64,000 nt of DNA. Origin: a virus. Lineage: Duplodnaviria; Caudoviricetes. Location: IMG/VR virus record IMGVR_UViG_3300032307_000764, positions 160,001 through 224,000 of that record; one strand, written 5' to 3'. Of the stretch, positions 4,740 to 31,705 are shown in pieces. Position 1 is the stretch's first letter. Each line of letters begins with the position of its first letter. Position numbers and translations under genes: made by a program. The notes beneath the pieces are model-generated. The model was not told the origin of the DNA. It worked only from the letters and a program-made list of their open reading frames with translations, and did no database searches.

Positions 4740-4921
4740 AAATTATCACCTCCATATATAGAAAAGGGTCTGGATTATTTTCAGACCTTTTTTGTGTGCG
4801 GAGGTTTTTTCTGCAGCCGCGGATTATTGACTGAGGAACCCCCTCGAGGGTGTTAAAAACTATTTGGACGGAAATTCAGGAATCATTTTTATATATAGAA
4901 AATTCTATTTATATTTGTACT

Positions 4922-5080
4922 ATGAAATCTTTTAAGAAAATTCTGTTTAATTATAGCAAGGCTCGTGAACGTGAGCGTGCTAAGGAAGCGGGTTTTTTCG
5001 ATGGAAGGTTTAAGACAAAAGTTGTCACACCCAAGACCAAGAAGCCACCTAAGCACAAACATAAATTGTTTCAAGAATAA
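4922..5080 (+). CDS. Small basic hypothetical protein
   Basis: ATG 4922 just after TATATTTG; Lys/Arg-rich. Confidence 0.65.
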   Translation: MKSFKKILFNYSKARERERAKEAGFFDGRFKTKVVTPKTKKPPKHKHKLFQE

Positions 5081-5586
5081 TGGCTAAGATTAAAGTAGAT
5101 CAGAATAGGTTGCAGAGCAATCTGAAGAGAGGAGAGATTAAGTTCTCTTATGAGAAGGTTGACGGATCGATTAGAGAAGCTAGGGGTACAACACTTTTAG
5201 ATTTGATACCCGCATCACAGCATCCTAAGGATGGAGAGAAGGCTCACAAAGGTACAGCATTCTTTGATTTGGATAATTTGGCTTGGAGATCAATTTCTGA
5301 AAAGACCGAGTGTGTTGATATAGATTCAGATTCACTAGTTGAAATTTACGGGTCACCTATCATAGAGGAGGAGGAGATTAGCTTTATGTTATTCAAGGAA
5401 GGAACACTAGGTGATGTGTGGTTGAATAAATTGATAGAGGTTATCATGGATGCTACACCTCATCGTGCAACGGAGCTTGGTCACGGAGAGTTTAAAAAGC
5501 TAGTCCGAGTTTGTAGAAGGTACATTGAGGACGAGAGCTATGTTAATAGCCTTGAGGATCGATGGAATAAATTTGTAACCAATTAA
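5080..5586 (+). CDS. WYL_2/DUF2693-like SH3 beta-barrel protein
   Basis: LKRGEIKFSYEKVDGSIREARGT...FFDLDNLAWRS. Confidence 0.7.
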   Translation: MAKIKVDQNRLQSNLKRGEIKFSYEKVDGSIREARGTTLLDLIPASQHPKDGEKAHKGTAFFDLDNLAWRSISEKTECVDIDSDSLVEIYGSPIIEEEEISFMLFKEGTLGDVWLNKLIEVIMDATPHRATELGHGEFKKLVRVCRRYIEDESYVNSLEDRWNKFVTN

Positions 5587-5596
5587 ACTTAAATAT

Positions 5597-6052
5597 ATGC
5601 AAGAAGATTCTAAAATTAGTATGTCCAGAAAAAGACGGATAGTACGATGGAGAAGATTCACCTCGTGGATGTACAGAGGAATGGAGAAGGGATTTTCACG
5701 ACAGGATGAATTATCAGATTCACAGAAAGCTGGAGTCAAGATTTTTGAAAGAGCTTTAACTGTTAAGGATGCTGATTTGTTATTAGCTCCATTGAGCGAT
5801 ACTATCTACATAGAGGTTGATGACATTTTCCTTATTTTGGATGGTAGACAATTAAAGATTATCAATGGAAAATATCAGTACGATATTTACCTTCCAGAAA
5901 AGGTTAATCAGAAGCTTTACTCTTCCTTTAAGAAAGTGTTAGAGAAAAGAAGAAAACAAATGGAGTACAAAATCATCACTAAGACTAACCGTAGTCTAAA
6001 TAACATCCTCGATGATTTAGCAGAAATCAGAGATCGCAAGAAAGAGGAGTAA
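5597..6052 (+). CDS. Hypothetical protein
   Basis: 151-aa ORF with AACCAATTAAAC leader. Confidence 0.75.
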   Translation: MQEDSKISMSRKRRIVRWRRFTSWMYRGMEKGFSRQDELSDSQKAGVKIFERALTVKDADLLLAPLSDTIYIEVDDIFLILDGRQLKIINGKYQYDIYLPEKVNQKLYSSFKKVLEKRRKQMEYKIITKTNRSLNNILDDLAEIRDRKKEE

Positions 6053-6233
6053 GAAACCAAAAACCCAAAGGAGCCTAAGAGAAATCTTAGGCTTTTTTGT
6101 GTGCGGATGTTTTTGTAGCAGCAGCGGATTATTGCCTGAGGAACCCCCGATGAACATCCCGTCAGACGGGATTTACAAATCATTTTTTATTTTGTAGAAA
6201 ATTCTATATATTAGCTAAGTAAACCAATTAGAC

Positions 6234-6668
6234 ATGGATAAGAACATTTTCAAAGTAAAGGACAATCTCTATGTTGAGGGTAACAAGGTTATCAGTTATG
6301 TAACTGTTGTTGCTATTATAAAGGGTGATAGCATAATAGAGCTTGGTAAATTTTCAAGGACCACGACTAAGCATATCTTTATGCTTTCACAATTGATGAG
6401 CAAGAAGATAGTTCACACTACAAAAAAGAGGAGAGAAGATTTTGACAAGTTTAATTTGGGTGTGAAGACATCCTATGATAATTGTATCGGTCAAAAGGCT
6501 TCTCTTATGATTTTGGAGTCGCTCGGAAAAGGTATTCCTTATAATGTTACTCTTGCTACTTTGAAAGGAAAGATAGCTAAGAGGGATTGGGAATTATTAG
6601 ATAAGGAAGGCATCGATCCGGAGTTATTGAAAGGCGGGTCTTTATTAAGTCGAGTGGGAATTTATTAA
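6234..6668 (+). CDS. Hypothetical protein with C-terminal LKGGSLLSRVGIY tag
   Basis: 144-aa ORF with its own promoter. Confidence 0.75.
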   Translation: MDKNIFKVKDNLYVEGNKVISYVTVVAIIKGDSIIELGKFSRTTTKHIFMLSQLMSKKIVHTTKKRREDFDKFNLGVKTSYDNCIGQKASLMILESLGKGIPYNVTLATLKGKIAKRDWELLDKEGIDPELLKGGSLLSRVGIY

Positions 6669-6722
6669 ATCATTTTTTTGTTTGTAGAAAATTCTCTATA
6701 TTAGCTAAGTAAATCAAACGAT

Positions 6723-7016
6723 ATGGCAGACTTAAATTTTGTAGCTATAATTACAGGGCCCGCAGAATATCTCGAGGGTGGTGTAAAGGTTGAGGACTTC
6801 ACTATCACTTGGGATGAGATAGTAGAGGATTGTGATGATTTTGATGATGAAGGAAATCCAACTGAGGAAGGTGTAGTTGGAGCTATCGATTATCTCAAAG
6901 AGGAGTATGCTGCTGAGTGGTCACAGAGATGGTGTAAGGTAACTCTTCTTTCCAAAGAACAGTTCCTAGTTATTAAAAATTTTAGACCGGAAGAAAATTT
7001 GTTTATACCTAATTAA
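6723..7016 (+). CDS. Acidic hypothetical protein
   Basis: 97-aa ORF with its own promoter. Confidence 0.75.
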   Translation: MADLNFVAIITGPAEYLEGGVKVEDFTITWDEIVEDCDDFDDEGNPTEEGVVGAIDYLKEEYAAEWSQRWCKVTLLSKEQFLVIKNFRPEENLFIPN

Positions 7017-7079
7017 ATCATTTTTTTAATTGAAAAGAATTTTCTATATTAGCTAAGTAAACCAATTAAACAAAAAGAG

Positions 7080-7502
7080 ATGGCAACACGATCTAGGATC
7101 GCAATCGAAAAAGAAGACGGTAAAGTAGAATCGATCTACTCTCATTGGGATGGATATCCTGAAGGCAATGGAGCGAAACTTTTCGAACACTACAAAGACC
7201 GTGAAAAAGTTCAAAGCCTAATTGATTTAGGCGACATCAGTTCCTTAGCTCCAGAAGTCGAAGCACCAGAGGGTCACTCATTTAATTCACCAGCAAAAGG
7301 TGTAGTGGTAGCTTACGGAAGGGACAGAGGAGAGAAAAATGTAGGAAAAAGATACCATGCTTCAAAAGATGCTTTTTTTAATTCTGATATTGAAGAATGG
7401 GGATATCTTTTAACCAAGGAAGGCGATTGGGAAGTTAAATCGGCTTACGAAAGAACCAACGGGGTGGAGAAACTCGAAGAAGTCCTGAGTAAATTGGTTT
7501 AG
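7080..7502 (+). CDS. Conserved phage hypothetical protein (HWDGYP family)
   Basis: MATRSRIA...SIYSHWDGYPEGNG motif, seen in many phage early genes. Confidence 0.75.
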   Translation: MATRSRIAIEKEDGKVESIYSHWDGYPEGNGAKLFEHYKDREKVQSLIDLGDISSLAPEVEAPEGHSFNSPAKGVVVAYGRDRGEKNVGKRYHASKDAFFNSDIEEWGYLLTKEGDWEVKSAYERTNGVEKLEEVLSKLV

Positions 7503-7767
7503 TGTTTAATTGGTTGAAACACGGAGAGGGGGCTCAGATCTTAGGATCTGGCCCTCTTTTTTTGTGGGGTTATGTTATGGAATCTAAAACCTCTGTAGGT
7601 GCTATGCCTGGGGAACCTTCGGGGAGTCCGATAATGCTGTTTAATCTTTTCTGAGAAACGTTAAACGAAAAAAATCAAAAAAAAGCTACTAAATTCTAAG
7701 GAATCATTTTTTATATCAAATGGAAGTTTCTATATTAGCTATGTAAACCAATTAAAAATAAAAAAAA

Positions 7768-8151
7768 ATGGCAAGAGACAAAAGCACAATTTCAGGAGGA
7801 TTAGGAATCTCTGAAGAGTTTTTCACAGAAGCACAAAAGATTGTAGCAGAAAACTACAAGAAGTACGACACCATCTCGGATGCTTTGGAAGCGATCGGTG
7901 AGGAAGTTCGAGTTGAGGCTTTGGGTGAATGTAACGAAGCATTATCCGATTACGAACGTAAGCTATTGTTAGCTGGGTTCTTGGGTGGTGCTAAAGGAAC
8001 AGAAAGCAAGCTCAACGGAATCCTAAACGCTATGAAGGTTATGATGGCGTTGGACGGAGCTCCTGAGGAACTCAAAAAAGCTTTGTTCAGCAAGATCTTG
8101 AATGACTTCGGGATTGGCGAAAAAAATGATGACGGGTCTGACGAAGATTAG
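7768..8151 (+). CDS. Hypothetical protein
   Basis: 127-aa ORF with its own promoter and terminator. Confidence 0.75.
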   Translation: MARDKSTISGGLGISEEFFTEAQKIVAENYKKYDTISDALEAIGEEVRVEALGECNEALSDYERKLLLAGFLGGAKGTESKLNGILNAMKVMMALDGAPEELKKALFSKILNDFGIGEKNDDGSDED

Positions 8152-8248
8152 TCTAAGGGGAGCTTAATTGCTCCCCTCTTTTTCTTGGAATCATTTTTTT
8201 ATTCCAATGGATTTTTCTACATTTGTATCAATCAATTAAACACGAAAT

Positions 8249-8596
8249 ATGAACGCATGCACGCACTGCGGTACCTTACACGATAAAAAAGGTATGTACT
8301 GCTCAAAAAAATGCACTGACGCAGCTTATAGAGCTCGTAAGAAAGCAGCTACAGTTGTTACTGAAACATCGACAACTGACCCGGATGAGATCGTCGAAAA
8401 GTTCACCAAAAGGTTTGGTTTCCCTGTTAGGCTATTTTGGAACAAACGCCTAGAAAGAGAAAACTCTTCATGTGCAAAAGCAGGAACCACTTTGGAGTTC
8501 GAACAAATCTCTAAAAAGGGAGGTCGAGTAATTTATCGGGTTCGAAGAGGTAAAAGAAACTTCTTCACATCGGACAAGGAATTATTAGATTCCTAA
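8249..8596 (+). CDS. Zn-finger protein with C-terminal beta domain
   Basis: CxxC...YCSxxC-DAAYR; N-terminus like 11391, C-terminus like 28408. Confidence 0.75.
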   Translation: MNACTHCGTLHDKKGMYCSKKCTDAAYRARKKAATVVTETSTTDPDEIVEKFTKRFGFPVRLFWNKRLERENSSCAKAGTTLEFEQISKKGGRVIYRVRRGKRNFFTSDKELLDS

Positions 8597-8699
8597 TTGA
8601 AATCAAAGTAAATAAAAGGCTCAGGTTACTGGGCCTTTTTTGTGGAATCCTTTTTTTATATCTTAGAAAATTCTTATATTAGCTATCTAATCTATCATC

Positions 8700-8960
8700 A
8701 TGAATAATAAAAAAGTTCTCGAAAGATACCCCACTGCAATAGCTGTAGAATACAGAACCAAATTTGATGTTGGCATCGTAGGTAAAGGTGTGAAATTTTA
8801 CATCATTCAGGAGAGCAAGGATTCTGAGTATGCTTTGGGATTTGCCAGATCAGAGAGAGGTGCATGGCAAATGGCAGAATCATGGTTACAAAATGATATG
8901 TCGATGTTTCCTGATTACAAAGGCTATCCAATAGATCAAGCTAAATTAGAGATGGAATAA
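8700..8960 (+). CDS. Hypothetical protein
   Basis: 86-aa ORF with its own promoter. Confidence 0.7.
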   Translation: MNNKKVLERYPTAIAVEYRTKFDVGIVGKGVKFYIIQESKDSEYALGFARSERGAWQMAESWLQNDMSMFPDYKGYPIDQAKLEME

Positions 8961-9030
8961 TCAGGAAATCCTTTTTTTATCTCTTGGAAAATTCTTATAT
9001 TAGCTAAGTTAACCAATTAAAACATAGGAT

Positions 9031-9480
9031 ATGTCAAAAGAAAGAGAAGAAGCAACTGTTACAATCAAAAAAATGGTAGCAGAATCAGGGAACAAAATTT
9101 TCATGGGAATGACACATCATATTTATGGCCCACTAAGAGGACTCAACTACATTTTAGTAAATCCAAACATTGAGGAAATCCTAGATTGTTTGGACGAACA
9201 AGCTGGAGGTGTTGAACTAGATGACCAGATGAAGATCATCGAGAAAGTTAAAACCGCTGAGCCAAAAACCAATATTGAAACTGCAATTAAGATTTGGACG
9301 AAAACAGGAATGGCAGTTCAACTTATGATTCTTCCTTACGAAATGGTCGAACAAGCTGAGAACGCACCAACAGAAGTTAACTCACTTGAAGAAGGAAGAA
9401 AAGAAATCCTAAAAAATCTTTCATTCACAGCACCCCTGCAAGAAAAAGATCCTTTCTTTTTCCGAACAGGAATAGTTTAA
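9031..9480 (+). CDS. Hypothetical protein
   Basis: 149-aa ORF with promoter and terminator. Confidence 0.75.
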   Translation: MSKEREEATVTIKKMVAESGNKIFMGMTHHIYGPLRGLNYILVNPNIEEILDCLDEQAGGVELDDQMKIIEKVKTAEPKTNIETAIKIWTKTGMAVQLMILPYEMVEQAENAPTEVNSLEEGRKEILKNLSFTAPLQEKDPFFFRTGIV

Positions 9481-9680
9481 ACTCCTATAAACTAGAAGAA
9501 GAAGAAGCCAGAGAAATCTGGCTTTTTTTGTGTGCGGATGTTTTTTCTGCAGCCGCGGATTATTGCCTGAGGAACCCCCTCATGATGGTATCCGGAAATT
9601 ATCCTTTAGATTTTCTTGGAAATCATTTTTTATATTAAGTAGAAGTTTCTATATTTGTATTAACCAATAAAAATAACACC

Positions 9681-10004
9681 ATGAAATACTTCGGAATCGC
9701 AGATGCACACGGAATAGAAAGCTTCATCAAAGGTGACCCGGCTTCTACAGAAAACTCGACTCAAACTATGATGCTTCATATGAGAGCAGGAGCCAATCGA
9801 CATCGACATGCAGTTGTGTATATCGTTGATATTTCTGAAAGCACAGCTCAGGATATTGATGAATTACTCGGCGAAGGAGATTACACTGGAGCTTTAGTAA
9901 GACTAAAAATGTCTGTTGAAGATCTTCAATTAACTAATCTTCCTGGAGCAGAGAAGAGCTGGAGGTTAATACCAAACTCTGATTTGGATCCTTTTAATGG
10001 ATAA
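9681..10004 (+). CDS. Hypothetical protein
   Basis: 107-aa ORF with its own promoter. Confidence 0.75.
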   Translation: MKYFGIADAHGIESFIKGDPASTENSTQTMMLHMRAGANRHRHAVVYIVDISESTAQDIDELLGEGDYTGALVRLKMSVEDLQLTNLPGAEKSWRLIPNSDLDPFNG

Positions 10005-10165
10005 AATATCAGGTTTTTCTGCTGATTATAGAATATTCTAACGTAATTGGATCTAGAATCGTTTTTTATATCGGACATAACACCCTAAATTTGTCATATA
10101 ACTAAAAAGGGAAGATATGAAGAACTTAAGCAGGGAAACACAGCCGAAAGCAAAACCTTACTACT

Positions 10166-10666
10166 ATGGAGTGGCAGGAACAACACGTCCAATCAATCGT
10201 CCGAAGTAATCCAAATCCCGGAACTTCTAGCTACTTCAACGATAATATAACTATGCAGCTAAGAGGAGGAGATTTATACCCTTACATTTTTACTCAAATA
10301 GAAATCGAGAGAGGTAAGGATTACACGGTAGGTGAATTGATTACTAAATTCAGAAATCTTGGTATTGTCATCAAATACGTAGGTAAAACGAAGATGCCAC
10401 CAGGAGATGTCGATTTCTCAATCAGTGAAGAGTTCACATCTGGATTTAGACAAAGGTTTTTAGAAAACGTTCTATTTGAAACCGAAGAAGAAAAAAACAA
10501 CTTTGAATCTATTTTAAAGATTATAGACAAGAAGGTAACAATAGGTCAACATGTATCGATAGATTCAAATGGATTAGAAGATTCATCATCGTATCTAACA
10601 ATTTTCGGATCATATGAAGATTCACATGGTCCGATACAGATATTCGTACTTGAAATACCTTATTAA
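10166..10666 (+). CDS. Hypothetical protein
   Basis: 166-aa ORF; true start may be ATG 10253, with a separate 30-aa ORF at 10117-10209. Confidence 0.65.
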   Translation: MEWQEQHVQSIVRSNPNPGTSSYFNDNITMQLRGGDLYPYIFTQIEIERGKDYTVGELITKFRNLGIVIKYVGKTKMPPGDVDFSISEEFTSGFRQRFLENVLFETEEEKNNFESILKIIDKKVTIGQHVSIDSNGLEDSSSYLTIFGSYEDSHGPIQIFVLEIPY

Positions 10667-10753
10667 CAATTGAATGTTAAAAAAGTTAGAAAATATTTTT
10701 TTAATATAGAAAAAGCGCATACATTTGCAATAACTATTAAACGCATTAGATAA

Positions 10754-10987
10754 ATGACTTGGGAACAGTGTAGGGATTACGGATTAATAAGCATCGAGCC
10801 TGGGAACAATACCGTTCGATTGCATTATAATCAATGGGGAACAAGAATTGCTGAAAAGCCTTTATTCCTTCAAGTTGAGTCCGCTTCTTGGCAAGGTAAC
10901 AATATCATACTAAGAGGATACAATCACTACGGAGAACATCTCGTTTATGTAATGACTGATTTCAATAGCTATCAAAGAATCCTATAA
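10754..10987 (+). CDS. Hypothetical protein
   Basis: 77-aa ORF after a TACATTTG promoter. Confidence 0.7.
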   Translation: MTWEQCRDYGLISIEPGNNTVRLHYNQWGTRIAEKPLFLQVESASWQGNNIILRGYNHYGEHLVYVMTDFNSYQRIL

Positions 10988-11008
10988 TTTTTTAAACACT
11001 CTCAAAAA

Positions 11009-11224
11009 ATGATGAATCGTAAGATCACAGTAACTCTCGATAAAGCAATCAAATTGTATTCGAGTTTAAAATTTGAAGAAAAAGGAATCACCAGCGTAAA
11101 ACCTGGTACAACTGTTACCTTAGAAGAAACCGGAAAGGTTCTTACTAATTCTGAAGGTAAGGATTGCAAAGTCTTGAGACTTCGCAAAAACACTCGTAAT
11201 TATTATACAATAGACGAGATCTAA
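11009..11224 (+). CDS. Small beta-domain protein related to the C-termini of 8249 and 28408
   Basis: IKLYSSLKFE...G...VLRLRKNTRNYYT aligns with VRLYKNLKME...G...VFRVKRTGRRTFYT. Confidence 0.65.
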   Translation: MMNRKITVTLDKAIKLYSSLKFEEKGITSVKPGTTVTLEETGKVLTNSEGKDCKVLRLRKNTRNYYTIDEI

Positions 11225-11390
11225 TTTTTATATCAGGAAACTGCCTTTTCCTGAATTTTTTTACTGTCAAAACCCGAGATTAACCCCTCGGGTTTTTTTG
11301 TGGGTTTTAAATCTGTCTGCTGGAGATATTTTCTGGGGCACCCCATGTAATTTTACCGTATGTTTGCACTATAAAAGATAAACCAGATTT

Positions 11391-11744
11391 ATGAAATGTA
11401 TACAATGCGGAGATGAACACGAGAGGAAAGGAATGTATTGTTCAAAGAGCTGTACTGATAAAGCATATCGTGAGAGAAAGAAAAATAAGATAGACGTTCC
11501 GGAGGAAAAAGGTGAAAAGCTTAAATGGTGTAACTTCTGTGGTGCATCTATAGATGAATCACCAAAGCTAGCCTTCTGTGACGATGACCACGAGAAAGAC
11601 TATTGGAGAACTATCAGAGACGGAGGAACCCTCAAAATAAAGATCGATGCTAGAACAGAGATTCAAACAAAGAAATATTATAGAGTTCAAGATATTATAG
11701 AAGCAATGGTTAACAGAGGTAAGAACGGTGTAACATACTTTTGA
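11391..11744 (+). CDS. Double Zn-finger protein
   Basis: CIQC...YCSKSCTDKAYR and CNFC...FCDDDH. Confidence 0.75.
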   Translation: MKCIQCGDEHERKGMYCSKSCTDKAYRERKKNKIDVPEEKGEKLKWCNFCGASIDESPKLAFCDDDHEKDYWRTIRDGGTLKIKIDARTEIQTKKYYRVQDIIEAMVNRGKNGVTYF

Positions 11745-11783
11745 AACCTTTACTCCGATTTTTCTATAATAAAAAACCAAACT

Positions 11784-11909
11784 ATGAAGAACAGATTCCT
11801 ATGGATACTTGCTATACTTTGTGCAGTATCAATTCTACTAAGCTGTAAAACATCAAAGACAAACTGTGATGCTTACGGTGAGGTTCCTCAGAAGACATCC
11901 CGAGTTTAA
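11784..11909 (+). CDS. 41-aa predicted lipoprotein
   Basis: Manual translation MKNRFLWILAILCAVSILLSCKTSKTNCDAYGEVPQKTSRV; hydrophobic core plus LLSC lipobox. Confidence 0.65.
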   Translation: MKNRFLWILAILCAVSILLSCKTSKTNCDAYGEVPQKTSRV

Positions 11910-11997
11910 AAAACAATTCCATTTTTTTCCAAGAATCATTTTTTCTTTTAAATAGAATTTTCTACATTAGCTATGTAAACCAATTAAAACTAGCAAA

Positions 11998-12264
11998 ATG
12001 TCAGAAAAAGAAAAAAGAGATCAGATATTCAATAAGATCGCAGAACTTGCTAACATGGCAAGTATTCAAGGATTCTTAACCGAGGATACGGAATCAATCT
12101 TAGTTGCTGAATCAATCAAAGTTGTCTTGACTGCTGCTCAAGATGAAAAGCACCTAGAGTTATTACATCAACACATGAGCAACTTCTTAGATGAGGTACA
12201 AGTTTTAATGGGTCAAAGAACTGTAAAAGAGCATTTGCTCGCTAAAGAAAGATGTGTGAATTAA
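11998..12264 (+). CDS. Hypothetical protein
   Basis: 88-aa ORF with its own promoter. Confidence 0.75.
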   Translation: MSEKEKRDQIFNKIAELANMASIQGFLTEDTESILVAESIKVVLTAAQDEKHLELLHQHMSNFLDEVQVLMGQRTVKEHLLAKERCVN

Positions 12265-12334
12265 TTCCAAGAATCCTTTTTTCTTTTAAATAGAATTTTC
12301 TACATTAGCTTCAACCAATTAAAGACTAGAAATC

Positions 12335-12658
12335 ATGAACTGTAACAACTGCGGAACCACAAAAGAATTTAAGTCAGTCCAAACATGCTGCGAAATGACA
12401 GGAGCATTAATCACTATCCAGATGGGATACTGTACCTGTAAAGATGATGACGATGACGACGATGATCTGTCAGGAAGAATGATTGACCATGGTGAAAGAC
12501 CAACGATCACTATTGATCCCACTGATGCAAGCCCGGGATTGCTTCGTAAGGTAGCAGGGCTTAAAAAGCTTCAGAGAGTAGGTAAGGCTATCGGAATCGA
12601 GAACACATTCGAAGTGGAGGTTAAAGAATCTGTTGACTCTAAAAGAAAGGTTATTTAG
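12335..12658 (+). CDS. Cys-rich hypothetical protein with poly-Asp tract
   Basis: CNNC, CC, CTC and DDDDDDDD. Confidence 0.7.
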   Translation: MNCNNCGTTKEFKSVQTCCEMTGALITIQMGYCTCKDDDDDDDDLSGRMIDHGERPTITIDPTDASPGLLRKVAGLKKLQRVGKAIGIENTFEVEVKESVDSKRKVI

Positions 12659-12720
12659 AAAATCATTTTTTTTATTAAGTAGATTTTTCTATATTTGTAA
12701 AGTAACCAATTAAAACTAAC

Positions 12721-22099: not shown

Positions 22100-22102
22100 G
22101 GT

Positions 22103-23460: not shown

Positions 23461-23480
23461 AACCCTGAGGAGAACAATAT
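23425..23480 (+). repeat. 31-nt tandem duplication
   Basis: GTTAGAACCCTGAGG(G/A)GAACAATAT at 23425 and 23456. Confidence 0.85.
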
Positions 23481-23564
23481 TGGATAACCCACATAATCTG
23501 AAATCATTTTTTTAATTGTAGAAAATTCTCTATATTAGCTAAGTAATCAATTAAACAAAACAGC

Positions 23565-23771: not shown

Positions 23772-23776
23772 GGGAT

Positions 23777-24004
23777 ATGAATGATTTTATTTACGTTCTA
23801 GTTATTTTGGTTTTATTAGCAGTATCTGTTGTACTTGCTGTATCCTTATTTTCAGAACGATGTGATCACCAATGGACTCTAATAAAGAACGCAGATCTTA
23901 TTAAATATAACCGAGAAGGTAAGGAAGTTCCTTATGGTTACCTTAGAGTTCACGAGTGTGAGAAGTGCAAGAAATTGAAAAAGCAACAAGTCGAAATGGA
24001 TTAG
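23777..24004 (+). CDS. Membrane-anchored Zn-ribbon protein
   Basis: N-terminal TM, CDHQW...CEKC. Confidence 0.7.
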   Translation: MNDFIYVLVILVLLAVSVVLAVSLFSERCDHQWTLIKNADLIKYNREGKEVPYGYLRVHECEKCKKLKKQQVEMD

Positions 24005-24006
24005 TT

Positions 24007-24147
24007 ATGAAGTGGACATTTTTTATATTTGGTACAATTGCGACGATTTTAGGAATTGCATTATCGTCTGACACAGAATGTATTGTAGGTGCTGTATTTC
24101 TTTCAGCTTACGCAGTGATCAATGAAATTCAAAAAGTAAAAAAATAA
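24007..24147 (+). CDS. Small two-TM protein
   Basis: MKWTFFIFGTIATILGIALS... Confidence 0.6.
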   Translation: MKWTFFIFGTIATILGIALSSDTECIVGAVFLSAYAVINEIQKVKK

Positions 24148-24152
24148 AAGCC

Positions 24153-24479
24153 ATGGGAGCTACACTAGTTAAGGATATGGAAAGAGTTAACTGTCCAGAT
24201 TGCAGTGCAGCTCCAGGAGAATACCACATGGATGGATGTGACATCGAAAGATGTACTGATTGTGAGGGACAAAGATTATCTTGTAGCTGTCCAGACCACG
24301 GAGATTATCAAAGAGAGAAATGGTCAGGAATAGCTTACGAGAAAGCTAGGTTAATAGCAGAAGAAAATAACCTATATGTTAAATGGAATAAAGGCTGGGT
24401 TAAATGCTCCAAAGATGATGAAGGAGCATCACACGATCTTAATGAAGCTACATTTCTTTTAATGTCTGGCAAAGTTTAG
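24153..24479 (+). CDS. Zn-binding phage protein
   Basis: CPDC..PGEYH..GCDIERC..CEGQRLSCSC motif known from phage early genes. Confidence 0.75.
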   Translation: MGATLVKDMERVNCPDCSAAPGEYHMDGCDIERCTDCEGQRLSCSCPDHGDYQREKWSGIAYEKARLIAEENNLYVKWNKGWVKCSKDDEGASHDLNEATFLLMSGKV

Positions 24480-24741
24480 TTTTGTTTGTTTAGTTTGTTT
24501 GGTTTAGAGAGGGACACAATTGTCCCTCTCTTTTTTTGTGCATTCTTTTTCTGTGTAGCTATGCTGCATCATGAGGAGGTTCCCCACACCTGGATACACC
24601 TGAAAACACCATAAACACCCCGGGGACACCCAGGAGGGGACTTGCGTATACGTGCGTACGTACGAGGGTTTTTATAGGTAATCATTTTTTATAATGTAGA
24701 AAATTCCATATATTTGTAATAACAATCTAAAACACAAACAA

Positions 24742-25023
24742 ATGAGTGAAACAAAATCCCCTATTGGTTTAGTAGTTTATAAAGGAGACTGGGAAGGAGC
24801 ACAATGGACTATCACAGGAAATCCTAAGAAAGAACTAACTATTAAAGAGTTTGAATCTGCTTATGACTTCGAAGAGTTTATCCAGCAAAAGGTTGACCAT
24901 GTAGGAATTGAATTTGATTCAGAGTTTTGTCAGTTCTTTGCCTATGCTGAAACAGAAGGAAGAGCAATCAAGTTCCTAAGAGATATTGAAGAATACTTTA
25001 AGAAAGTTCGAGATTTACTTTAG
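24742..25023 (+). CDS. Hypothetical protein
   Basis: 93 aa with promoter and terminator. Confidence 0.75.
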   Translation: MSETKSPIGLVVYKGDWEGAQWTITGNPKKELTIKEFESAYDFEEFIQQKVDHVGIEFDSEFCQFFAYAETEGRAIKFLRDIEEYFKKVRDLL

Positions 25024-25194
25024 TAAATCCATCAACATAAAAAAAAGGGTCTTCGGACTCTTTTTTTGTGCGCTAAGGTTTTCCTGTAGCAGCCACAAGA
25101 ATTCGGGAGGAACCCCAGCGAACGAATCTTAGAAATCATTTTTTATTTAGTAGAAAAATCTTTATATTTGTATCAACCAATTAAAACAAATATT

Positions 25195-25386
25195 ATGTCA
25201 TTAAGTCAAGAAGAAAAACAAGAGGTCCTAAAAGGAGTAGACCATGCAATTAACGCTACTGAACAAACAGTGTTGGCGTTGAAGGACACATACGAATTTG
25301 CTCATCTCAAAAGGATCTCAGACATCCTAGTTGCTCAAGAGCTTTCGTTGAAGGAATTAAAAGATTTACGAAACTCAATATCATAA
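25195..25386 (+). CDS. Small coiled-coil protein
   Basis: ATG 25195 after promoter and leader. Confidence 0.65.
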   Translation: MSLSQEEKQEVLKGVDHAINATEQTVLALKDTYEFAHLKRISDILVAQELSLKELKDLRNSIS

Positions 25387-25389
25387 GAT

Positions 25390-25611
25390 ATGAAAGCATT
25401 GTTAGGCTTAGTAGGATTGGCAATTGGAATTCTATTAATTGCTGCTTACTGTGAAAGCAAAAAGGATCCTTATGAAGAGGGTATGCACATGGACTATTCT
25501 ATTGAATGTGAGAACGGTTTTGTTTACAAATCTCTAAATCATCGAAGGGGAACAATTCAAGTTCTAAACTCTGATGGAACACCTTTAAGATGTGGAGAGA
25601 AAATACATTAA
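25390..25611 (+). CDS. Membrane-anchored Cys-containing protein
   Basis: N-terminal TM; IECENGFVYK. Confidence 0.7.
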   Translation: MKALLGLVGLAIGILLIAAYCESKKDPYEEGMHMDYSIECENGFVYKSLNHRRGTIQVLNSDGTPLRCGEKIH

Positions 25612-25720
25612 CTCATAAACGGCCAGGTTGGTAGACTGGGGGATATTCAGCGTACTATCCCAAGTCAAGGAATAATGTCTCGCCAGGCATGGAAGGCACC
25701 AAGATATAAACCGATGAGTT
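25610..25720 (+). ncRNA. Candidate structured RNA (multibranch)
   Basis: AACTCAT/ATGAGTT, CGG/CCG, TTGGT/ACCAA, GACT..GGGATA/TATCCC..AGTC and ATGTCT/AGGCAT stems; directly before a terminator. Confidence 0.5.
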
Positions 25721-25901
25721 ATTAATCCCAAGAGCAATCTTGGGATTTTTTGTGGACTAAGGTTTTCACGTAGCAGCCGCAGGAATTCTGGAGGAACCCC
25801 CGGCGAGCTGATCAGACTAAACCTATAGGTTGATTTATAGGAATCATTTTTTTATTTGTAGAAAAATCTATATATTAGCTTAGTAACTAAAAACAAGAAC
25901 A

Positions 25902-26357
25902 ATGAATCACGATTTTATTAAAACAGTAAAAGTTATATCTGTTCAAGATTGGGACAGATTAGTTGAAAAAACCTATGGGAAAACTTATTCTTTTCAGCAA
26001 CAAGATGATTGCAAAGATAGAGGTACAGAGTACATAACAGTTCCGTGTGAACCTGAAGATTATGAAAATGATACTATTCCTGAAATAATTAATGGGGAGG
26101 AAATGGGTGTAAGTTTTAAAAGTTGGTTGGAAAGAGATCCAAAAGCTCTTTTAAACCCTTCCGCTAAAGAACTTGAGGGTTCTGATTATTATTGGGGTAA
26201 TACACCAGCTGATGAAAAAGAGTACAAAGAGAACCCAAGTAATATTAGCTTGTTCTGGGAAAGAAATTTTTATCCTCATGTAAGTATGATTGTTAATGAT
26301 CTACATGCTAAAGGTATTCTTGAAGAAGGTGAGTATGGAATTGAAATTGATTGGTAA
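25902..26357 (+). CDS. Hypothetical protein
   Basis: 151 aa with its own promoter. Confidence 0.75.
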   Translation: MNHDFIKTVKVISVQDWDRLVEKTYGKTYSFQQQDDCKDRGTEYITVPCEPEDYENDTIPEIINGEEMGVSFKSWLERDPKALLNPSAKELEGSDYYWGNTPADEKEYKENPSNISLFWERNFYPHVSMIVNDLHAKGILEEGEYGIEIDW

Positions 26358-26373
26358 TTAAACAACAAGAAAG

Positions 26374-26619
26374 ATGAAAACACCAACAGCAGAAGAGTAC
26401 ATCAAAACAAATCTAACTGATTTTTGGGAAGGGGGTAAAGCACAGTATACAGGAGAAGATGTTGCAAAAGCAATGATTGAGTTCGCCAAGCTCCATGTAG
26501 AAGCTGCAATAAAAGCTTGTATAGAAGATGCACCTTCAGGGTCATCTACTGATACTGTAAGCCAAGAAGATGTTGTAGAAGCATTGAAAGACAGTTATCC
26601 ATTAGAAAACATTAAGTAG
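26374..26619 (+). CDS. Hypothetical protein
   Basis: AMIEFAKLHVEAAIKA...YPLENIK pattern typical of Bacteroidota phage small ORFs. Confidence 0.7.
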   Translation: MKTPTAEEYIKTNLTDFWEGGKAQYTGEDVAKAMIEFAKLHVEAAIKACIEDAPSGSSTDTVSQEDVVEALKDSYPLENIK

Positions 26620-26698
26620 CATGGAAATTCCAAGAATCATTTTTTTCTTTAAGTAGAATTTTCTATATTTGTAATGTTAATCAATTAAACAAAAACAA

Positions 26699-26836
26699 AT
26701 GGCAGAAAAAATCGTTTTAAGAGCATTTCAAGTTTGGTCAGCAACTTTAGGTTTGACAGTAGTATTTGGGATTGGTTTTGCAATCTATAGTTTAATCGTT
26801 GGTAACTATACCAGCACCGCAAGTTTTGAGTTTTAG
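26699..26836 (+). CDS. 45-aa single-TM protein
   Basis: Manual translation MAEKIVLRAFQVWSATLGLTVVFGIGFAIYSLIVGNYTSTASFEF; own promoter and terminator. Confidence 0.65.
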   Translation: MAEKIVLRAFQVWSATLGLTVVFGIGFAIYSLIVGNYTSTASFEF

Positions 26837-27000
26837 TTTTGTTTGTTTTGTTTTGGTTAAAGAGGAACTTCGGTTCCTCTTTTTTTGTGGGCTAACTTTT
26901 TCCTCCCTGCAGGGTAGGAATCTGGAGGAACCCCCGAACCCCGATTCTAGAATCATTTTTTTCTCCAGATTATAATGATTACATTGTAAGAAAAATAATA

Positions 27001-27285
27001 ATGGCCGATTGCTATAACTGTAAGTACAGAGGAGAAATTCCGGGGAGTGCACACTCATGCTGTGAAATCACAAAACATGTTCCTGCATTAAGTAAGGTTA
27101 AATCAGAATTTCTAGATATAGCTCTTATGATAGGGAAAGCTAAAATAAAAGGTAGCGATGGTACCAATGCAGTTAAACTAAATCCTGAAGGTGTTAAAAA
27201 CGGATGGGCTAGTTGGCCTCTAGACTTTGACCCAGTCTGGATAACATCCTGTGAATTATTCAAAGCCAAACCCAAACGTAAATAG
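27001..27285 (+). CDS. Cys-motif hypothetical protein
   Basis: CYNCKYR..PGSAHSCC...GWASWPLDFDPVWITSC. Confidence 0.75.
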   Translation: MADCYNCKYRGEIPGSAHSCCEITKHVPALSKVKSEFLDIALMIGKAKIKGSDGTNAVKLNPEGVKNGWASWPLDFDPVWITSCELFKAKPKRK

Positions 27286-27347
27286 GAATCATTTTTTTCT
27301 TTGTAGAAAATTCTATATATTTGGTATAACCAATTAAACAAAAGGAC

Positions 27348-27578
27348 ATGCCAACTACAGACACTTTTTATGTTTCCTCTAAGGACAACAAAGTAAGAAG
27401 AACCACAGAGCCCGGAAGAGAGTACTTCATCAAAGGAGGAAAGAAAGAAGGACAAGCTAAATACTTAATCGAAGTATTTGGATACGGCCACGAAGAAGTA
27501 GCTAAAGAAGTTAGGGACATGGTTGATAAAGGAGGAATGGACCAAAAATTATTTAGGATCAGAGTAGAGACCAGATAA
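27348..27578 (+). CDS. Hypothetical protein
   Basis: 76 aa with its own promoter. Confidence 0.7.
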   Translation: MPTTDTFYVSSKDNKVRRTTEPGREYFIKGGKKEGQAKYLIEVFGYGHEEVAKEVRDMVDKGGMDQKLFRIRVETR

Positions 27579-27833
27579 AGATATACAAGAATGGAGAAAG
27601 CCTAGAGATAGGTACTTGCTAAAGTGATTAAACCTCGCTTGTATGAAATCCCAAGTTAACTCTTGGGATTTTTTGTGTGCTAAGGTTTTGTGTTAGCACA
27701 TGCTATAAGCACCCGGGGTTCCCCAGGGGAGGGGTTGCGTATACGTGCGTACGTACGAAGGGATTTTCTTGGAATCATTTTTTTCTTTGAAGTAGGATAC
27801 TTATATTTAAGATAACCAATTAAAACAAATAAC

Positions 27834-27989
27834 ATGTACTCTTTAAAATGTGATTACTACACAAAACAATTCTCAACTCTTAATCAACTCCTAGGTGACA
27901 TTGCACTCTCAGGAATGGACCCAAATTATGAGATTACCTTCAATGGTAAAGGAACCGGTGAACTAGCTATTGATCTTATTCAATTTTAA
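27834..27989 (+). CDS. 51-aa hypothetical protein
   Basis: Manual translation; promoter and leader upstream. Confidence 0.65.
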   Translation: MYSLKCDYYTKQFSTLNQLLGDIALSGMDPNYEITFNGKGTGELAIDLIQF

Positions 27990-27992
27990 ACC

Positions 27993-28145
27993 ATGTTCAT
28001 AATACTCTTTATCATCTTATCATTCTTTACCTTGATATCAATAGGAGCAGCTTATGCAATTAAAGAAAGAAAAATGACTATTACAGCAATCATTATATCC
28101 TCAGTCTGGATCCTTTCTTTATATTTAATCTTATATTTGAGGTAA
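27993..28145 (+). CDS. 50-aa two-TM protein
   Basis: Manual translation; two hydrophobic stretches. Confidence 0.55.
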   Translation: MFIILFIILSFFTLISIGAAYAIKERKMTITAIIISSVWILSLYLILYLR

Positions 28146-28407
28146 GCTTTAGTTCATAGAAGCAGTAATAAATTATCACTAAATCCCAAGAGCAATCTTG
28201 GGATTTTTTTTGTGCTGAAGTTTTCTGGTAGCAGCCACAGGAATTCTGGAGGAACCCCCGCTGGAAAACCCCTAAAACCCCTAAAGTCCCTCTCGGAAAA
28301 AAGTTTGAATTATTTCCAAGAAATTCCAAGAATCATTTTTTATATCGAGTAGAAGTTTCTATATTAGCTATGTTAATCAATTAAACAAAACCAAAAAACA
28401 AAACATT

Positions 28408-28722
28408 ATGAAAACTTTAACAGCAGAACAAAAAGCAAAAAAGGCAGCTTATGACAAAGCTTACAGAGCAAAGAAAAAAGCTCAAACTCAAATGGAAGCT
28501 TTCAAAATCCCAAGCGAAGACAAATTCGAAAAAAGCTTTGACTATCCGGTTCGACTTTACAAAAACTTGAAAATGGAGAAAACAAATTCTTACTGTGCAG
28601 CAGCAGGAGCACTCTTAAGCTTTGTTAAAATCAAAAACGAAAACAACCAAATCGTTTTCAGAGTTAAAAGAACTGGTCGCAGAACTTTCTATACAACTTC
28701 AAATGAACTTATCCAAAAATAA
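28408..28722 (+). CDS. Basic protein sharing a C-terminal domain with 8249
   Basis: DKAYRAKKK; FDYPVRLY...FRVKRTGRRTFYT. Confidence 0.75.
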   Translation: MKTLTAEQKAKKAAYDKAYRAKKKAQTQMEAFKIPSEDKFEKSFDYPVRLYKNLKMEKTNSYCAAAGALLSFVKIKNENNQIVFRVKRTGRRTFYTTSNELIQK

Positions 28723-28945
28723 GAGCATCCAAAAAACAAATGAGGAGACTTCGGTCTCCTTTTTTGTGACCTAAGGTTTTGCAAAAGACGTATGCATGTA
28801 AGACGAGGGAACCTCCGAGACTTTAAGCAGCTCTAGCAAAAACTGATACATCTATCAAAAACTGATAATACATAGCTTTACCATAAGCTCCTGAGGAACC
28901 CCAGCCATTTTACTGGAGATCTTACCAGGAGTTTTTGATCCTTTT

Positions 28946-29003
28946 CTATCCTACTTCTACCTCTTTTCTACTCTTCTTCTACAACTCCTCTACTCTTCTT
29001 CTA
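28946..29003 (+). repeat. Six CTA motifs at exact 11-nt phase in a pyrimidine-rich tract
   Basis: CTA at 28946, 28957, 28968, 28979, 28990, 29001. Confidence 0.8.
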
Positions 29004-29100
29004 ATCACCTGAGGAACCCCAGGAACCCTAGCATTTTCTATTTGGGAATCATTTTTTTATTTGTGGAAAATTCTATACATTTATAACAAATAAAACAAAG

Positions 29101-29292
29101 ATGAATAACTACGCTAAACTAGTTTCACCAGACGGAGAAATCGTAGGAGTACTTGAACTTGAGGCAGGAACTTTAAACGAGACCCTCGTTGTTGAAGCAG
29201 CTCTTGAATTGGGTATTAAATTAGAAGCATGCACTGAGGAAGAGTACAACAATTTTGATGGTGATGAAATCAAACCAAGTTGGATGGAATAA
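29101..29292 (+). CDS. Small acidic protein
   Basis: 63 aa with its own promoter. Confidence 0.7.
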   Translation: MNNYAKLVSPDGEIVGVLELEAGTLNETLVVEAALELGIKLEACTEEEYNNFDGDEIKPSWME

Positions 29293-29363
29293 TTTCAAAA
29301 ATCATTTTTTATCTTCAGTAGATTTTTCTATATTAGCTAGGTTAATCAATATAACCACTCAAC

Positions 29364-29540
29364 ATGAAACAGGTACTTAAAGTCTTAGCATTTCCATTCA
29401 TCTTGTTATGGAGCTTATGTCAATCATTGCTAGAAATCCTTGAAGCATTATTCGCAAAGCCATTTGTGTTTCGCATGGGAAAGAACAGCATAGAAATCGG
29501 GATCGTGCCCCTGGTACTAATCATCTGGTTAATCTGCTAG
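29364..29540 (+). CDS. 58-aa hydrophobic protein
   Basis: Manual translation; its promoter is identical to the one at 29553. Confidence 0.55.
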   Translation: MKQVLKVLAFPFILLWSLCQSLLEILEALFAKPFVFRMGKNSIEIGIVPLVLIIWLIC

Positions 29541-29617
29541 AAAATTTACTAAAATCATTTTTTATCTTCAGTAGATTTTTCTATATTAGCTAAGTAATCA
29601 ATTAAACACAAATACAT

Positions 29618-30007
29618 ATGCGAATCTTAATTTTATCAGTGTTACTAATGGTAATTACCAGCTTCACCACAGTAACACTAGCTGCTATCCCTAGCAGCCA
29701 AGGCCTGGTTACCGATACAGTGTTAAAGAAGTATTCATACTTAGACACTTCAAAGGTAATCAACACTGAACAGCTCAAGATTGACCCAAGGTGGGTTCAA
29801 GGGCTATCTAATATTTCAAATTACAAACCCATCCTACATATTGACCCTGGCAGCCAGGACACGGTTTCTAATTATACTTTAGCTCGAATCACAGAACCAA
29901 TATTACACATCGACCCTGGCAATCAGGAATTTGGTTCTCTATACAACTATAATTCATTAGCTATTTTTAAGGAACCTGTACTACACATTGACCCCGGTCG
30001 TGATTAA
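29618..30007 (+). CDS. Secreted protein with three P(I/V)LHIDPG repeats
   Basis: Signal peptide MRILILSVLLMVITSFTTVTLAA; repeats differ at synonymous sites. Confidence 0.75.
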   Translation: MRILILSVLLMVITSFTTVTLAAIPSSQGLVTDTVLKKYSYLDTSKVINTEQLKIDPRWVQGLSNISNYKPILHIDPGSQDTVSNYTLARITEPILHIDPGNQEFGSLYNYNSLAIFKEPVLHIDPGRD

Positions 30008-30202
30008 GAAATAAAAAAAAAGAAAAGACTCTTCGGAGTCTTTTTTTGTGGCCCAAGGGTTTAAGGCAAATAAGGCAAACAAGGAAGTGCTCCTGAGGAA
30101 CCCCCGTACATCTTCCATCAATCATTTTTTTATTTAGAGAAAAATCCATACATTTATACTAGCCAATTAAAAATATTATTACCTTTACCTAAACAAAAAG
30201 AC

Positions 30203-30379
30203 ATGAAAGTAAAAATAGGAGAAAAGATTTACGATTCAGAAAAAGAACCTATTATGGTGATATTATCAGATGCAGACAAAAAAAATATTCACAATATGTT
30301 ACCAACAGCAACAAAATATTGTAGTTTTCCTGATGAAATCCCAACAGAAGATATAAAAGAATTTATGAAGACCACATAA
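30203..30379 (+). CDS. 58-aa hypothetical protein
   Basis: Manual translation MKVKIGEKIYDSEKEPIMVIL... Confidence 0.65.
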   Translation: MKVKIGEKIYDSEKEPIMVILSDADKKNIHNMLPTATKYCSFPDEIPTEDIKEFMKTT

Positions 30380-30388
30380 TCATAATAC

Positions 30389-30488
30389 AGTCAGGTGGTG
30401 TAATTGGTAACACGGGGTTCGAGTCCCCAATCTTCTCGAAGGGAAGATAAAGGCTGGCAAGATACAGGTTCGAGCCCTGTCCTGACTA
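30389..30488 (+). tRNA. Atypical ~100-nt tRNA-like gene (nominal anticodon CGA, Ser-like; no encoded CCA)
   Basis: 7-bp acceptor AGTCAGG/CCTGACT, D-arm GTGT-AATTGGTA-ACAC, T-arm ACAGG-TTCGAGC-CCTGT; GGGG-TTCGAGT-CCCC at the anticodon position plus a 35-nt extra region. Confidence 0.65.
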
Positions 30489-30553
30489 CAAAATCATTTT
30501 TTTAATTGGAAGTAATTCCTTACATTTATACTAACCAATTAAAACAAAACAAA

Positions 30554-30709
30554 ATGAAAACACACAAATTAGTTTACCCACTAGCTTACACTTCACTCTT
30601 CACATTAGTAATAGGAGCAATCCTAATGGTAGGAGGAAATCACATAGGAGATTATATGGTTGCAGGAGGTGCAATCGTAGCAACATTACTCATGCACAAA
30701 TTAGATTGA
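30554..30709 (+). CDS. Small two-TM protein
   Basis: ATG 30554 after promoter and leader. Confidence 0.65.
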   Translation: MKTHKLVYPLAYTSLFTLVIGAILMVGGNHIGDYMVAGGAIVATLLMHKLD

Positions 30710-30853
30710 GTTTGATTGGTTAACACATACAACTCAAATCAGAAAGACCAGCTTCCTCCAGCTGGTCTTTTTTTGTGGACCTTTGACAAATCTTTAAGAA
30801 GACAACTGGAACTTAGCAGGAACCCCCGATATATAAGAGATAACAACAACATT

Positions 30854-31069
30854 ATGAAAGAGTATCTTTTATCAATCAAGAATGGTGAAACCATCAACAC
30901 AATCAAAGCACATACACTAGAAGAAGCAATTCTCTACTTTGCAAAGGTTAAAAACCTATCACAAGATTCATTATTAGACATCTATAGTGTTAATCCTAGA
31001 CCATTCACAATAAACCTTGCTGATTATTGTGAAGCTCATAAAATAGATCCTTACATGCAAACTAAGTGA
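30854..31069 (+). CDS. Hypothetical protein (late-type promoter)
   Basis: ATG 30854 after GATATATA at 30828; the track start 30716 spans a terminator. Confidence 0.65.
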   Translation: MKEYLLSIKNGETINTIKAHTLEEAILYFAKVKNLSQDSLLDIYSVNPRPFTINLADYCEAHKIDPYMQTK

Positions 31070-31266
31070 TAGTAAGTATTCCTTATTCCTAAGGTTTACA
31101 TCCCTATTTTCCAGATAATAGTATACTAGCATAAGTCTGAGGAGGTACCCCATTCTATTTTACCATAGCTTAACATAAGGTTTACCATAGCCTAGCATAA
31201 GCTCCTGAGGAACCTCCCTAAGGATACTAAAAACAAGTAACAGGATATATACAATAAAACACAACC

Positions 31267-31494
31267 ATGGAATTACTAAGATTTGAAGATTACATCAACG
31301 AAAATAACAACATATCTGAACAAGAAGATATGATGATTAAAAATTTTAAAACTGATGTTCAAAGAGTACTTATGCAAGACACAGTAGCTAGACCTAACTT
31401 TGCGGAAGGAACCTTCGGGAGTAGACCAGCATCTTTACCAGAAATGATCTCTTCTCTAGAATCTATTATTGCTGATTATAAATCTAAGATGTAA
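31267..31494 (+). CDS. Tag protein MELLRFEDYINE
   Basis: GATATATA at 31244; N-terminal tag. Confidence 0.7.
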   Translation: MELLRFEDYINENNNISEQEDMMIKNFKTDVQRVLMQDTVARPNFAEGTFGSRPASLPEMISSLESIIADYKSKM

Positions 31495-31705
31495 AGTTAA
31501 CCACATACCTACAAAAAGAGATCTTAGGATCTCTTTTTTTGTGACCATAAGACTTACCATAAGCTCCTGAGGAACCCCAGAAAAGATCAGCATAGCTCCA
31601 GCATTATATCTTACATTAGCTGCATGGGATACTGGATCTGGGCTGATTAGAATCATTTTTTATATTGTGGAATTTTCCATACATTAGCTAAACAAACAAT
31701 TAGCT

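Follow-up and report, generated by a model that had tools for sequence, protein, structure and literature searches.

A 64,000-nucleotide (nt) stretch of viral DNA (the window; bases 160001-224000 of the 248-kb IMG/VR virus record IMGVR_UViG_3300032307_000764, or G000, which is rated 85% complete) carries a one-directional array of small genes separated by repeated intergenic modules. This array is probably an early hyperplastic region like those built on the composite early-promoter/stem-loop (PeSL) elements of T4-type phages, here in a distantly T4-like freshwater jumbo phage with a Bacteroidota-type host, and its gene cassettes are probably exchanged by homologous recombination at the repeats. 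The evidence consists of an array anatomy that is conserved in three phages, breakpoints that lie in the modules, a shuffled gene order and the concerted evolution of one spacer family. The promoters span 1151 to 32482, which makes the array larger than the original prediction stated:

1151..32928, + strand: whole putative early cassette array, with about 70 small open reading frames (ORFs), 45 promoters and 23 hairpin/T-run terminators

A single type of predicted promoter occurs at 45 junctions, all on the + strand. Its consensus is gAATCATTTTTT, 18 nt, then cTAtATT(t/a)G, with the core word AATCATTTTTT, and a -7 box of the form TAnnTT(T/A)G is found at a fixed offset of 29 in 37 of the 45 copies. 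The core word has 41 matches in the window, all on the + strand, compared to 0.52 expected. AATCMTTTTTT occurs 53 times in forward orientation across the 248-kb record, 42 of them within the 40 kb that hold the array. The promoters start at 1151, 3090, 3376, 3803, 6178, 6668, 7016, 7702, 8189, 8646, 8967, 9621, 10057, 11934, 12272, 12661, 14301, 14394, 15491, 17247, 17696, 18119, 18658, 19221, 20322, 20576, 21276, 21736, 22777, 23502, 24680, 25134, 25842, 26635, 26951, 27287, 27773, 28331, 29047, 29300, 29553, 30120, 30492, 31651 and 32482. Each is followed by an A-rich leader, often with a ACCAATTAAA box and with no Shine-Dalgarno sequence, and for nearly every array ORF the ATG lies 55-66 nt past the promoter start. 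The intergenic DNA of the array is almost all module, short junctions (55-100 nt) being a promoter alone and long junctions measuring 165-380 nt; the longest exact repeat in the array is 44 nt. By analogy with T4, the array would be an early gene class transcribed by the host polymerase, and it is from such analogy that early timing, promoter activity and terminator activity are presumed here.

The long junctions begin with a G+C-rich hairpin and a T-run, then GTG, at 23 sites, and continue in a set order of hairpin/T-run, a spacer of roughly 47 nt, GAGGAACCCC box and promoter. Approximately 22 junctions consist of the promoter only, and a terminator is present at about half. The GAGGAACCCC box lies 44-48 nt past the T-run in 13 of 16 cases and 23-25 or 49-51 nt from the promoter, and a G4-N2-C4 inverted repeat is located 15-17 nt or about 42 nt upstream of the promoter. 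Both spacings, terminator to box (about 44-47 nt) and box to promoter (about 25 or 51 nt), are the same in two related phage contigs, G001 and G002, described below. Searched as GGAACCCC, the box has 24 matches in the window compared to 0.87 expected, and none of 100 shuffles reached 24. It is inverted four times in the window and accompanies only about 20 of the 45 junctions. In G002 it is an almost perfect 6+2+6 inverted repeat, CTGGGG-AA-CCCCAG, which in the window is usually reduced to GAGGAACCCC, and the box thus reads as a degenerate palindrome. The conserved unit past the terminators comprises the T-run, GTGNGCTAAGG, about 30 free nt and the CTGGGG-AA-CCCCAG palindrome, with palindromic words in the middle of the spacer. 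A reading of GGAACC as the -35 element of an extracytoplasmic function (ECF) sigma factor was rejected, as no common -10 was found 16-17 nt downstream. Separately, a perfectly alternating purine/pyrimidine word of 18-22 nt, TGCGTATACGTGCGTACGTACG, was noted at 17200-17217, 24643-24664 and 27736-27757, each time after a G-rich tract and between box and promoter. These are the longest such runs in the window, and they may be read as Z-DNA-prone DNA or as a palindromic protein site.

The individual repeats named in the original prediction are real. The 50-nt spacer at 4794 matches the copy at 17118 at 49 of 50 positions, that at 9530 at 48 and that at 6099 at 44; the box-to-promoter module at 20263 and 25783 is 98 nt long with 94 identical positions; the hairpin GGAGACTTCGGTCTCC was found at 14177, 17095, 19134 and 28744, within 1 nt of where it had been placed; and CATAAGCTCCTGAGGAACC lies at 28882, 31196 and 31558, exactly as given. 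A 42-nt exact repeat is present at 29298 and 29551, one nucleotide from the earlier 29299 and 29552. The junctions that carry these repeats, and those that figure in the comparisons below, are:

4766..4921, + strand: composite junction with hairpin and T-run, family-1 spacer at 4794, box at 4835 and a weak promoter near 4879
6071..6233, + strand: composite junction with family-1 spacer at 6099, box at 6140 and promoter at 6178
9505..9680, + strand: composite junction with family-1 spacer at 9530, box at 9571 and promoter at 9621
14173..14459, + strand: junction with terminator of type H, inverted box at 14242-14249 (- strand) and promoters at 14301 and 14394
17091..17308, + strand: junction with terminator of type H, family-1 spacer at 17118, box at 17159, purine/pyrimidine 18-mer at 17200 and promoter at 17247
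18027..18178, + strand: junction chimeric with respect to two G001 junctions, with box at 18095
19130..19284, + strand: junction with terminator of type H, family-2 spacer at 19157, palindromic box CTGGGGGAACCCCAG and promoter at 19221
20207..20380, + strand: junction with spacer at 20235, box at 20273, a 41-nt linker in common with 25793 and promoter at 20322
25724..25901, + strand: mosaic junction with a spacer like that at 19157 (93%) and a box-to-promoter part like that at 20263 (96%)
28740..29100, + strand: long junction with terminator of type H, three boxes (28808, 28895, 29013) and promoter at 29047
29298..29617, + strand: promoter pair, the 42-nt exact repeat (29298, 29551) around a 58-amino-acid (aa) ORF
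31515..31705, + strand: junction with a 27-nt copy of the 28878 repeat, box at 31571 and promoter at 31651

The record encodes a major capsid protein of the Gp23 family (PF07068, 129 bits), a T4-type prohead protease (36-40% identical to its nearest relatives in GenBank, those of huge uncultured phages), a ribonucleotide reductase and a topoisomerase II large subunit. Therefore, on its gene content, the phage is a remote member of the T4-like jumbo phages. Bacteroidetes use a TAnnTTTG -7 element, lack Shine-Dalgarno sequences and prefer adenines near -12/-13 (PMC6847099). Promoters of the sigma-70 type are not enriched here (51 found versus 53 expected, and 43 versus 54), a Shine-Dalgarno-like word stands upstream of 28 of 327 ORFs overall (2 of 64 for the array), and adenine is most frequent at -13 to -10 upstream of ORF starts. 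By those published rules, the promoter and translation-start signals fit a Bacteroidota-type host.

DNA nearly identical to the window was found in public metagenome runs, several of them labelled freshwater, and a megablast search of GenBank phages with 20 kb of sequence gave no match. Pattern scans found three related contigs, the close G001, the distant G002 and G003. In the array region, G002 and G003 are collinear with each other and represent one phage, and they contributed no additional events. Wider scans of IMG/VR with the box and the promoter gave multi-copy matches only in these three contigs, and single matches elsewhere in that database, which had no other modules with them, were taken as chance. 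Fourteen more distant loci with a MoxR-like ATPase have no such repeat system. Core proteins of G001 are approximately 92% identical to those of the window's phage and array proteins approximately 77%; G001 is collinear with the window from 197 to 18066 and then in part to 24319, where its contig ends. Core proteins of G002 are 68-80% identical to those of the record.

Comparison of the window with G001 identified nine whole-cassette insertions, deletions or replacements, and eight of these end at a promoter, T-run or box. A replacement at 3359-3803 has a promoter on both sides, with an unrelated 89-aa ORF in G001. Three extra ORFs in G001, at window positions 6149/6178, 6665 and 6979-7015, each end at a promoter, and the first is a 263-aa ORF that lies between two promoters at the 6071..6233 junction. 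The ORF at 8700-8960 and the 478-aa ORF at 12721-14157 are missing, and two multi-gene replacements start at the terminator junction at 18066 and directly past a box (20282). The cassettes that vary between relatives or within populations are:

3376..3863, + strand: polymorphic cassette with promoter at 3376, 120-aa ORF at 3434-3796 and promoter at 3803
5080..5586, + strand: 168-aa ORF with a WYL_2 domain, missing in G001
8646..9030, + strand: polymorphic cassette with promoter at 8646, 86-aa ORF at 8700-8960 and promoter at 8967
12661..14157, + strand: cassette of the 478-aa VWA/CobT-like ORF (12721-14157), a paralog of 15557-17068, missing in G001
20576..21735, + strand: two cassettes, ORFs 20636-21274 and 21333-21731, skipped in a metagenome contig

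With G002 the record shares every ORF in four of five 10-kb core bins and 10 of 11 ORFs in the fifth, but along the second half of the array the figures drop to 5 of 28 and 3 of 18. By reciprocal best hits, gene order relative to G002 is broken at 15 of 24 array adjacencies and at 1 of 50 core adjacencies. Reduced sharing of genes and disrupted order are confined to the array. When cassette order and content were compared among relatives, as the original prediction had proposed, the order was found not to be conserved, the opposite of the full conservation that would speak against cassette shuffling.

Two junctions allow the crossover to be placed within a repeat. At 8646/8967 the window has promoter, ORF and promoter where G001 has one chimeric promoter, whose left context matches that of the window promoter at 8646 and whose leader matches that of the promoter at 8967. 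At 18054, two G001 junctions are represented in one chimeric junction, which crosses over in the T-run/GTGNGCT motif and contains a 59-nt island that is 97% identical to G001. Homology to G001 also ends directly past a box twice (18095, 20273). The modules are composite terminator/promoter junctions, and relatives differ by whole cassettes with breakpoints in them, which supports the PeSL-type reading of the original prediction.

Joints of the same kind were found in a freshwater metagenome from another, unrelated study (X5). Three X5 contigs skip cassettes and join the flanks inside promoter repeats, each flank being unique in the genome. One joins 8660 to 8982 and skips 8661-8981, with a shorter side of 247 nt; another joins 3375 to 3803, and 33 nt fit both sides; the last joins 20575 to the promoter at 21736 with a side of 48 nt, and 12 nt fit both sides. 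Taken together with G001, the interval 3376-3803 therefore exists in three versions, namely the ORF of the window, another ORF (G001) and no ORF (X5). The many joints in the source run (X1) were not taken as evidence because their sides measure 24-39 nt and are matched by paralogous modules at other places of that genome. X5 has zero depth over 5001-5667, which was not used as no contig bridges it, and joints at which a contig goes back were not interpretable as circles.

The likeness of the modules to one another is only partly a product of exchange. At all 14 testable promoters, the G001 ortholog is at least as similar as the best paralog (closer at 11, tied at 3), with a mean identity of 93% versus 88%. 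Therefore, the likeness of the promoters is due to selection, not recombination, and selection is sufficient to account for it. Orthologs are likewise 94-95% conserved in the hairpin, the T-run junction and the box. These two observations, an intergenic DNA that is almost wholly module and the one insertion or deletion without modules all favor a model in which the repeats are ordinary early operon signals under purifying selection, exchange is illegitimate or driven by the flanks, intergenic breakpoints are merely those that selection keeps, and the modules add no recombination. However, this model does not account for crossovers inside repeats at chimeric junctions, for the 33 and 12 nt that fit both sides of joints in another metagenome, for the mosaic make-up of sub-modules or for the homogenization within genomes of spacer DNA that is unconstrained, and it is considered unlikely.

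Between orthologs, the spacer middle is 79% and the linker 67% identical, drifting like neutral DNA. All four family-1 spacers (4794, 6099, 9530, 17118) are nonetheless 90-97% identical to their paralogs versus 76-88% to their positional orthologs; the spacer at 4794 is 97% identical to the 17118 copy and 76% to its G001 ortholog, and each genome has its own shared family-1 variants. Because unconstrained DNA is near-identical within a genome, and selection does not explain the 4794/17118 pair, this points to concerted evolution of family-1 spacers by gene conversion across 3-12 kb. Independent assortment is also seen among the types of terminator, spacer, linker and promoter, as at 25752, where a 19157-type spacer is combined with a 20263-type linker and promoter. 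The claim that the near-identical modules are recombinogenic is supported by the chimeric junctions and by the spacer gene conversion, whereas most of the promoter likeness on which it also drew reflects purifying selection.

We propose that each small gene would be a self-contained expression cassette and that its regulatory repeats would be maintained by selection for expression. As a by-product, these repeats would offer patches of homology of 15-60 nt to general homologous recombination, and recombination at the patches would delete, insert, replace, reorder and convert cassettes, as in PeSL elements. Both the exchange enzyme and any role of the box are what we infer rather than observe.

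Several points weigh against this proposal. The coincidence of breakpoints with modules is partly trivial because a viable whole-gene insertion or deletion can only have its ends between genes, where nearly all of the DNA here is module, and the 168-aa ORF at 5080-5586, the only such event without a module at its ends, is missing in G001 all the same. The promoters display no concerted evolution. Two of the three X5 joints have short sides (48 and 57 nt), the population evidence consists of assembled contigs of public runs only, and a single assembly underlies the gene order given for the second half, although no exact repeat exceeds 44 nt. Finally, a RecA/Rad51-type recombinase was not found in the 85%-complete record, a null result that may be due to the missing 15% or to divergence.

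The original prediction also described the array as integron-like. Integron arrays are likewise one-directional rows of small, mostly unknown accessory genes with repeated boundaries and high turnover. However, the analogy fails in that integron cassettes are promoterless whereas each cassette here comes with a promoter, and often a terminator, of its own, and in that the array has no IntI-type recombinase, no attC-like folded site in RNA folding and no fixed crossover point. A search for the tyrosine recombinase family PF00589 gave no match in the 248-kb record although all control genomes matched, the record likewise gave no match to a resolvase (serine recombinase) and no GIY-YIG nuclease, and none of the 59 array ORFs matched a recombinase, transposase or homing nuclease family. 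On the sequence evidence, the integron analogy is not supported and a PeSL-like system is.

An integron-like system with an unrecognized enzyme may still be imagined, in which a specific protein targets the GGAACCCC box or the T-run/GTGNGC junction and excises or inserts cassettes. The fixed distance of box from terminator in three phages, the near-perfect 6+2+6 inverted repeat in G002, the occurrence of the box in both orientations and the two places where G001 homology ends directly past it would fit such a dedicated site, and Arbiol et al. speculated similarly about the GGGG...CCCC stem of RB49 PeSLs (PMC2839356). The failure of the enzyme searches argues against it, as do the best-resolved junctions, which cross over in box-free promoters, and the many junctions that have no box. 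This makes a dedicated site-specific system very improbable. Somewhat less doubtful, though still improbable, is a reading in which the unit past the terminators is a protein-bound cassette-boundary signal that targets recombination to cassette edges or insulates neighbors. If this were true, the array would be a phage-specific, recombinase-independent counterpart of integrons that goes beyond homologous recombination at promoters.

The fixed length and conserved ends of the terminator-spacer-box unit, and the palindromic words in its spacer, could also indicate a small RNA with a structure of its own, a site of RNA processing or a miniature mobile element dispersed across the array. However, the folding energies of 14 spacer-box units as RNA gave z-scores of -2.0 to +1.2 with no shared structure and nothing attC-like, and an Rfam scan returned no relevant family on the spacer units, the only family being a tRNA-like match elsewhere. 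Matches to STnc40, L20, S15, PhrS and CrcZ were discarded since they score below the gathering threshold and fall on terminators or coding DNA, and a hammerhead-like reading of CTGAGGA was dropped since it has no Rfam match and the word varies (CTGGAGG, CTGGGGG). In addition, the unit occupies the interval between a terminator and the following promoter, the box is also found in inverted orientation, and copies at orthologous positions in G001 are therefore not recent insertions. This explanation is scarcely credible.

PeSLs are composite early-promoter/stem-loop elements of the hyperplastic regions of T4-type phages, described in RB49/phi1, PST/T4 and nt-1/KVP40, where exchange between these elements removes, adds and swaps ORFans and gives rise to mini-circles (Arbiol et al. 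2010, PMC2839356; Comeau et al. 2014, PMC4122927). In RB49 the mini-circles occur at about 1 in 10^5 virions, and PeSL stems often contain G-runs and C-runs, for which the authors speculated about protein binding (PMC2839356). In all comparative respects, the junctions reported here match the PeSL description. Both are intergenic composites that measure about 100 nt and join a host-type early promoter to an A/T-rich tract upstream of it, a stem-loop and a leader reaching to the ATG; both are concentrated in an ORFan-rich hyperplastic region of a phage with a gp23-type capsid gene; and both have a G-run/C-run inverted repeat. In both systems relatives differ by ORF insertion, deletion or replacement between elements, and where one phage has a pair of flanking elements its relative has a single chimeric one. 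There are also differences. The promoter here follows the Bacteroidota -7 rule whereas PeSLs have sigma-70 hexamers; a conserved ACCAATTAAA leader box takes the place of the Shine-Dalgarno sequence; the true terminator forms a hairpin of its own and precedes the G/C palindrome by about 47 nt; roughly one junction in two is promoter-only; and the array is dense, with about 45 promoters in 32 kb. With its extra spacer, box and leader box, the module is richer than published PeSLs, as had been predicted, and the phage is only remotely related to those described (its prohead protease shares no more than 40% identity with that of any phage in GenBank).

Another familiar comparison, taken up in PMC2839356 as well, is with the morons of lambdoid phages, single genes that bring their own promoter and terminator without conserved flanks. 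The cassettes here share the promoter and terminator of their own, but their flanks belong to one repeated family and serve as exchange points.

The cassette genes are mostly of unrecognized type, as only about 9 of the 59 array ORFs match any Pfam family. The matches include a MoxR-type ATPase, two VWA/CobT-like paralogs, an FkbM methyltransferase, two WYL_2 proteins and a DUF1281_C protein. There are only three small paralog groups among the array ORFs, so the array was not built by tandem duplication. The gene at 20636-21274, present only in the window, has no relative in IMG/VR, and that at 22103-22777 has one, on a contig without modules. The VWA/CobT-like paralogs contain long acidic Gly/Glu/Asp-rich repeats with a 12-nt period and of unequal length (13144-13265, 15980-16170), and an X5 contig differs from the window by a 6-nt insertion or deletion at 13171. 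The promoter at 17247 falls inside a called 90-aa ORF (17177-17449), where the real gene is probably a 46-aa ORF from the in-frame ATG at 17309, 62 nt past the promoter. A 100-nt tRNA-like gene (30389-30488, + strand), which scores 43 bits with the Rfam tRNA model at a gathering score of 29, is part of an early cassette, with a 58-aa ORF before it and the promoter at 30492 after it; ARAGORN found no tRNA anywhere in the window. The array is closed by an 855-nt ORF-free block (32929-33783) with boxes in both directions (33114 on the - strand, 33197 on the + strand) and CCCCTA..TAGGGG hairpins, which may be an origin or a boundary element.

Two observations concern the record outside the array. 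A motif, GATATATA(A/G), stands upstream of 42 of 257 ORFs outside the array versus 2 of 70 inside it in the whole record, and it may serve this phage clade as a late or middle promoter. A block of about 14 kb with about 13 shared genes is inverted between G000 (137.6-151 kb) and G002 (57-71 kb), and it is the only large rearrangement between the two outside the array.

The data presented here suggest that the PeSL mechanism would extend from enterobacterial and Vibrio T4-type phages to a remote clade of uncultured jumbo phages with Bacteroidota-type signals. They add comparative evidence of recombination at repeats, in the form of chimeric junctions, deletion joints at the population level and concerted evolution of spacers. 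The 45 copies also yield a consensus of a Bacteroidota-type phage early promoter and leader, predicted to be strong, which may be of use in the genetics of Flavobacterium-like hosts. Lastly, the palindromic box, which has no described counterpart, is a target for asking whether a protein aids PeSL-type exchange, the question left by Arbiol et al.

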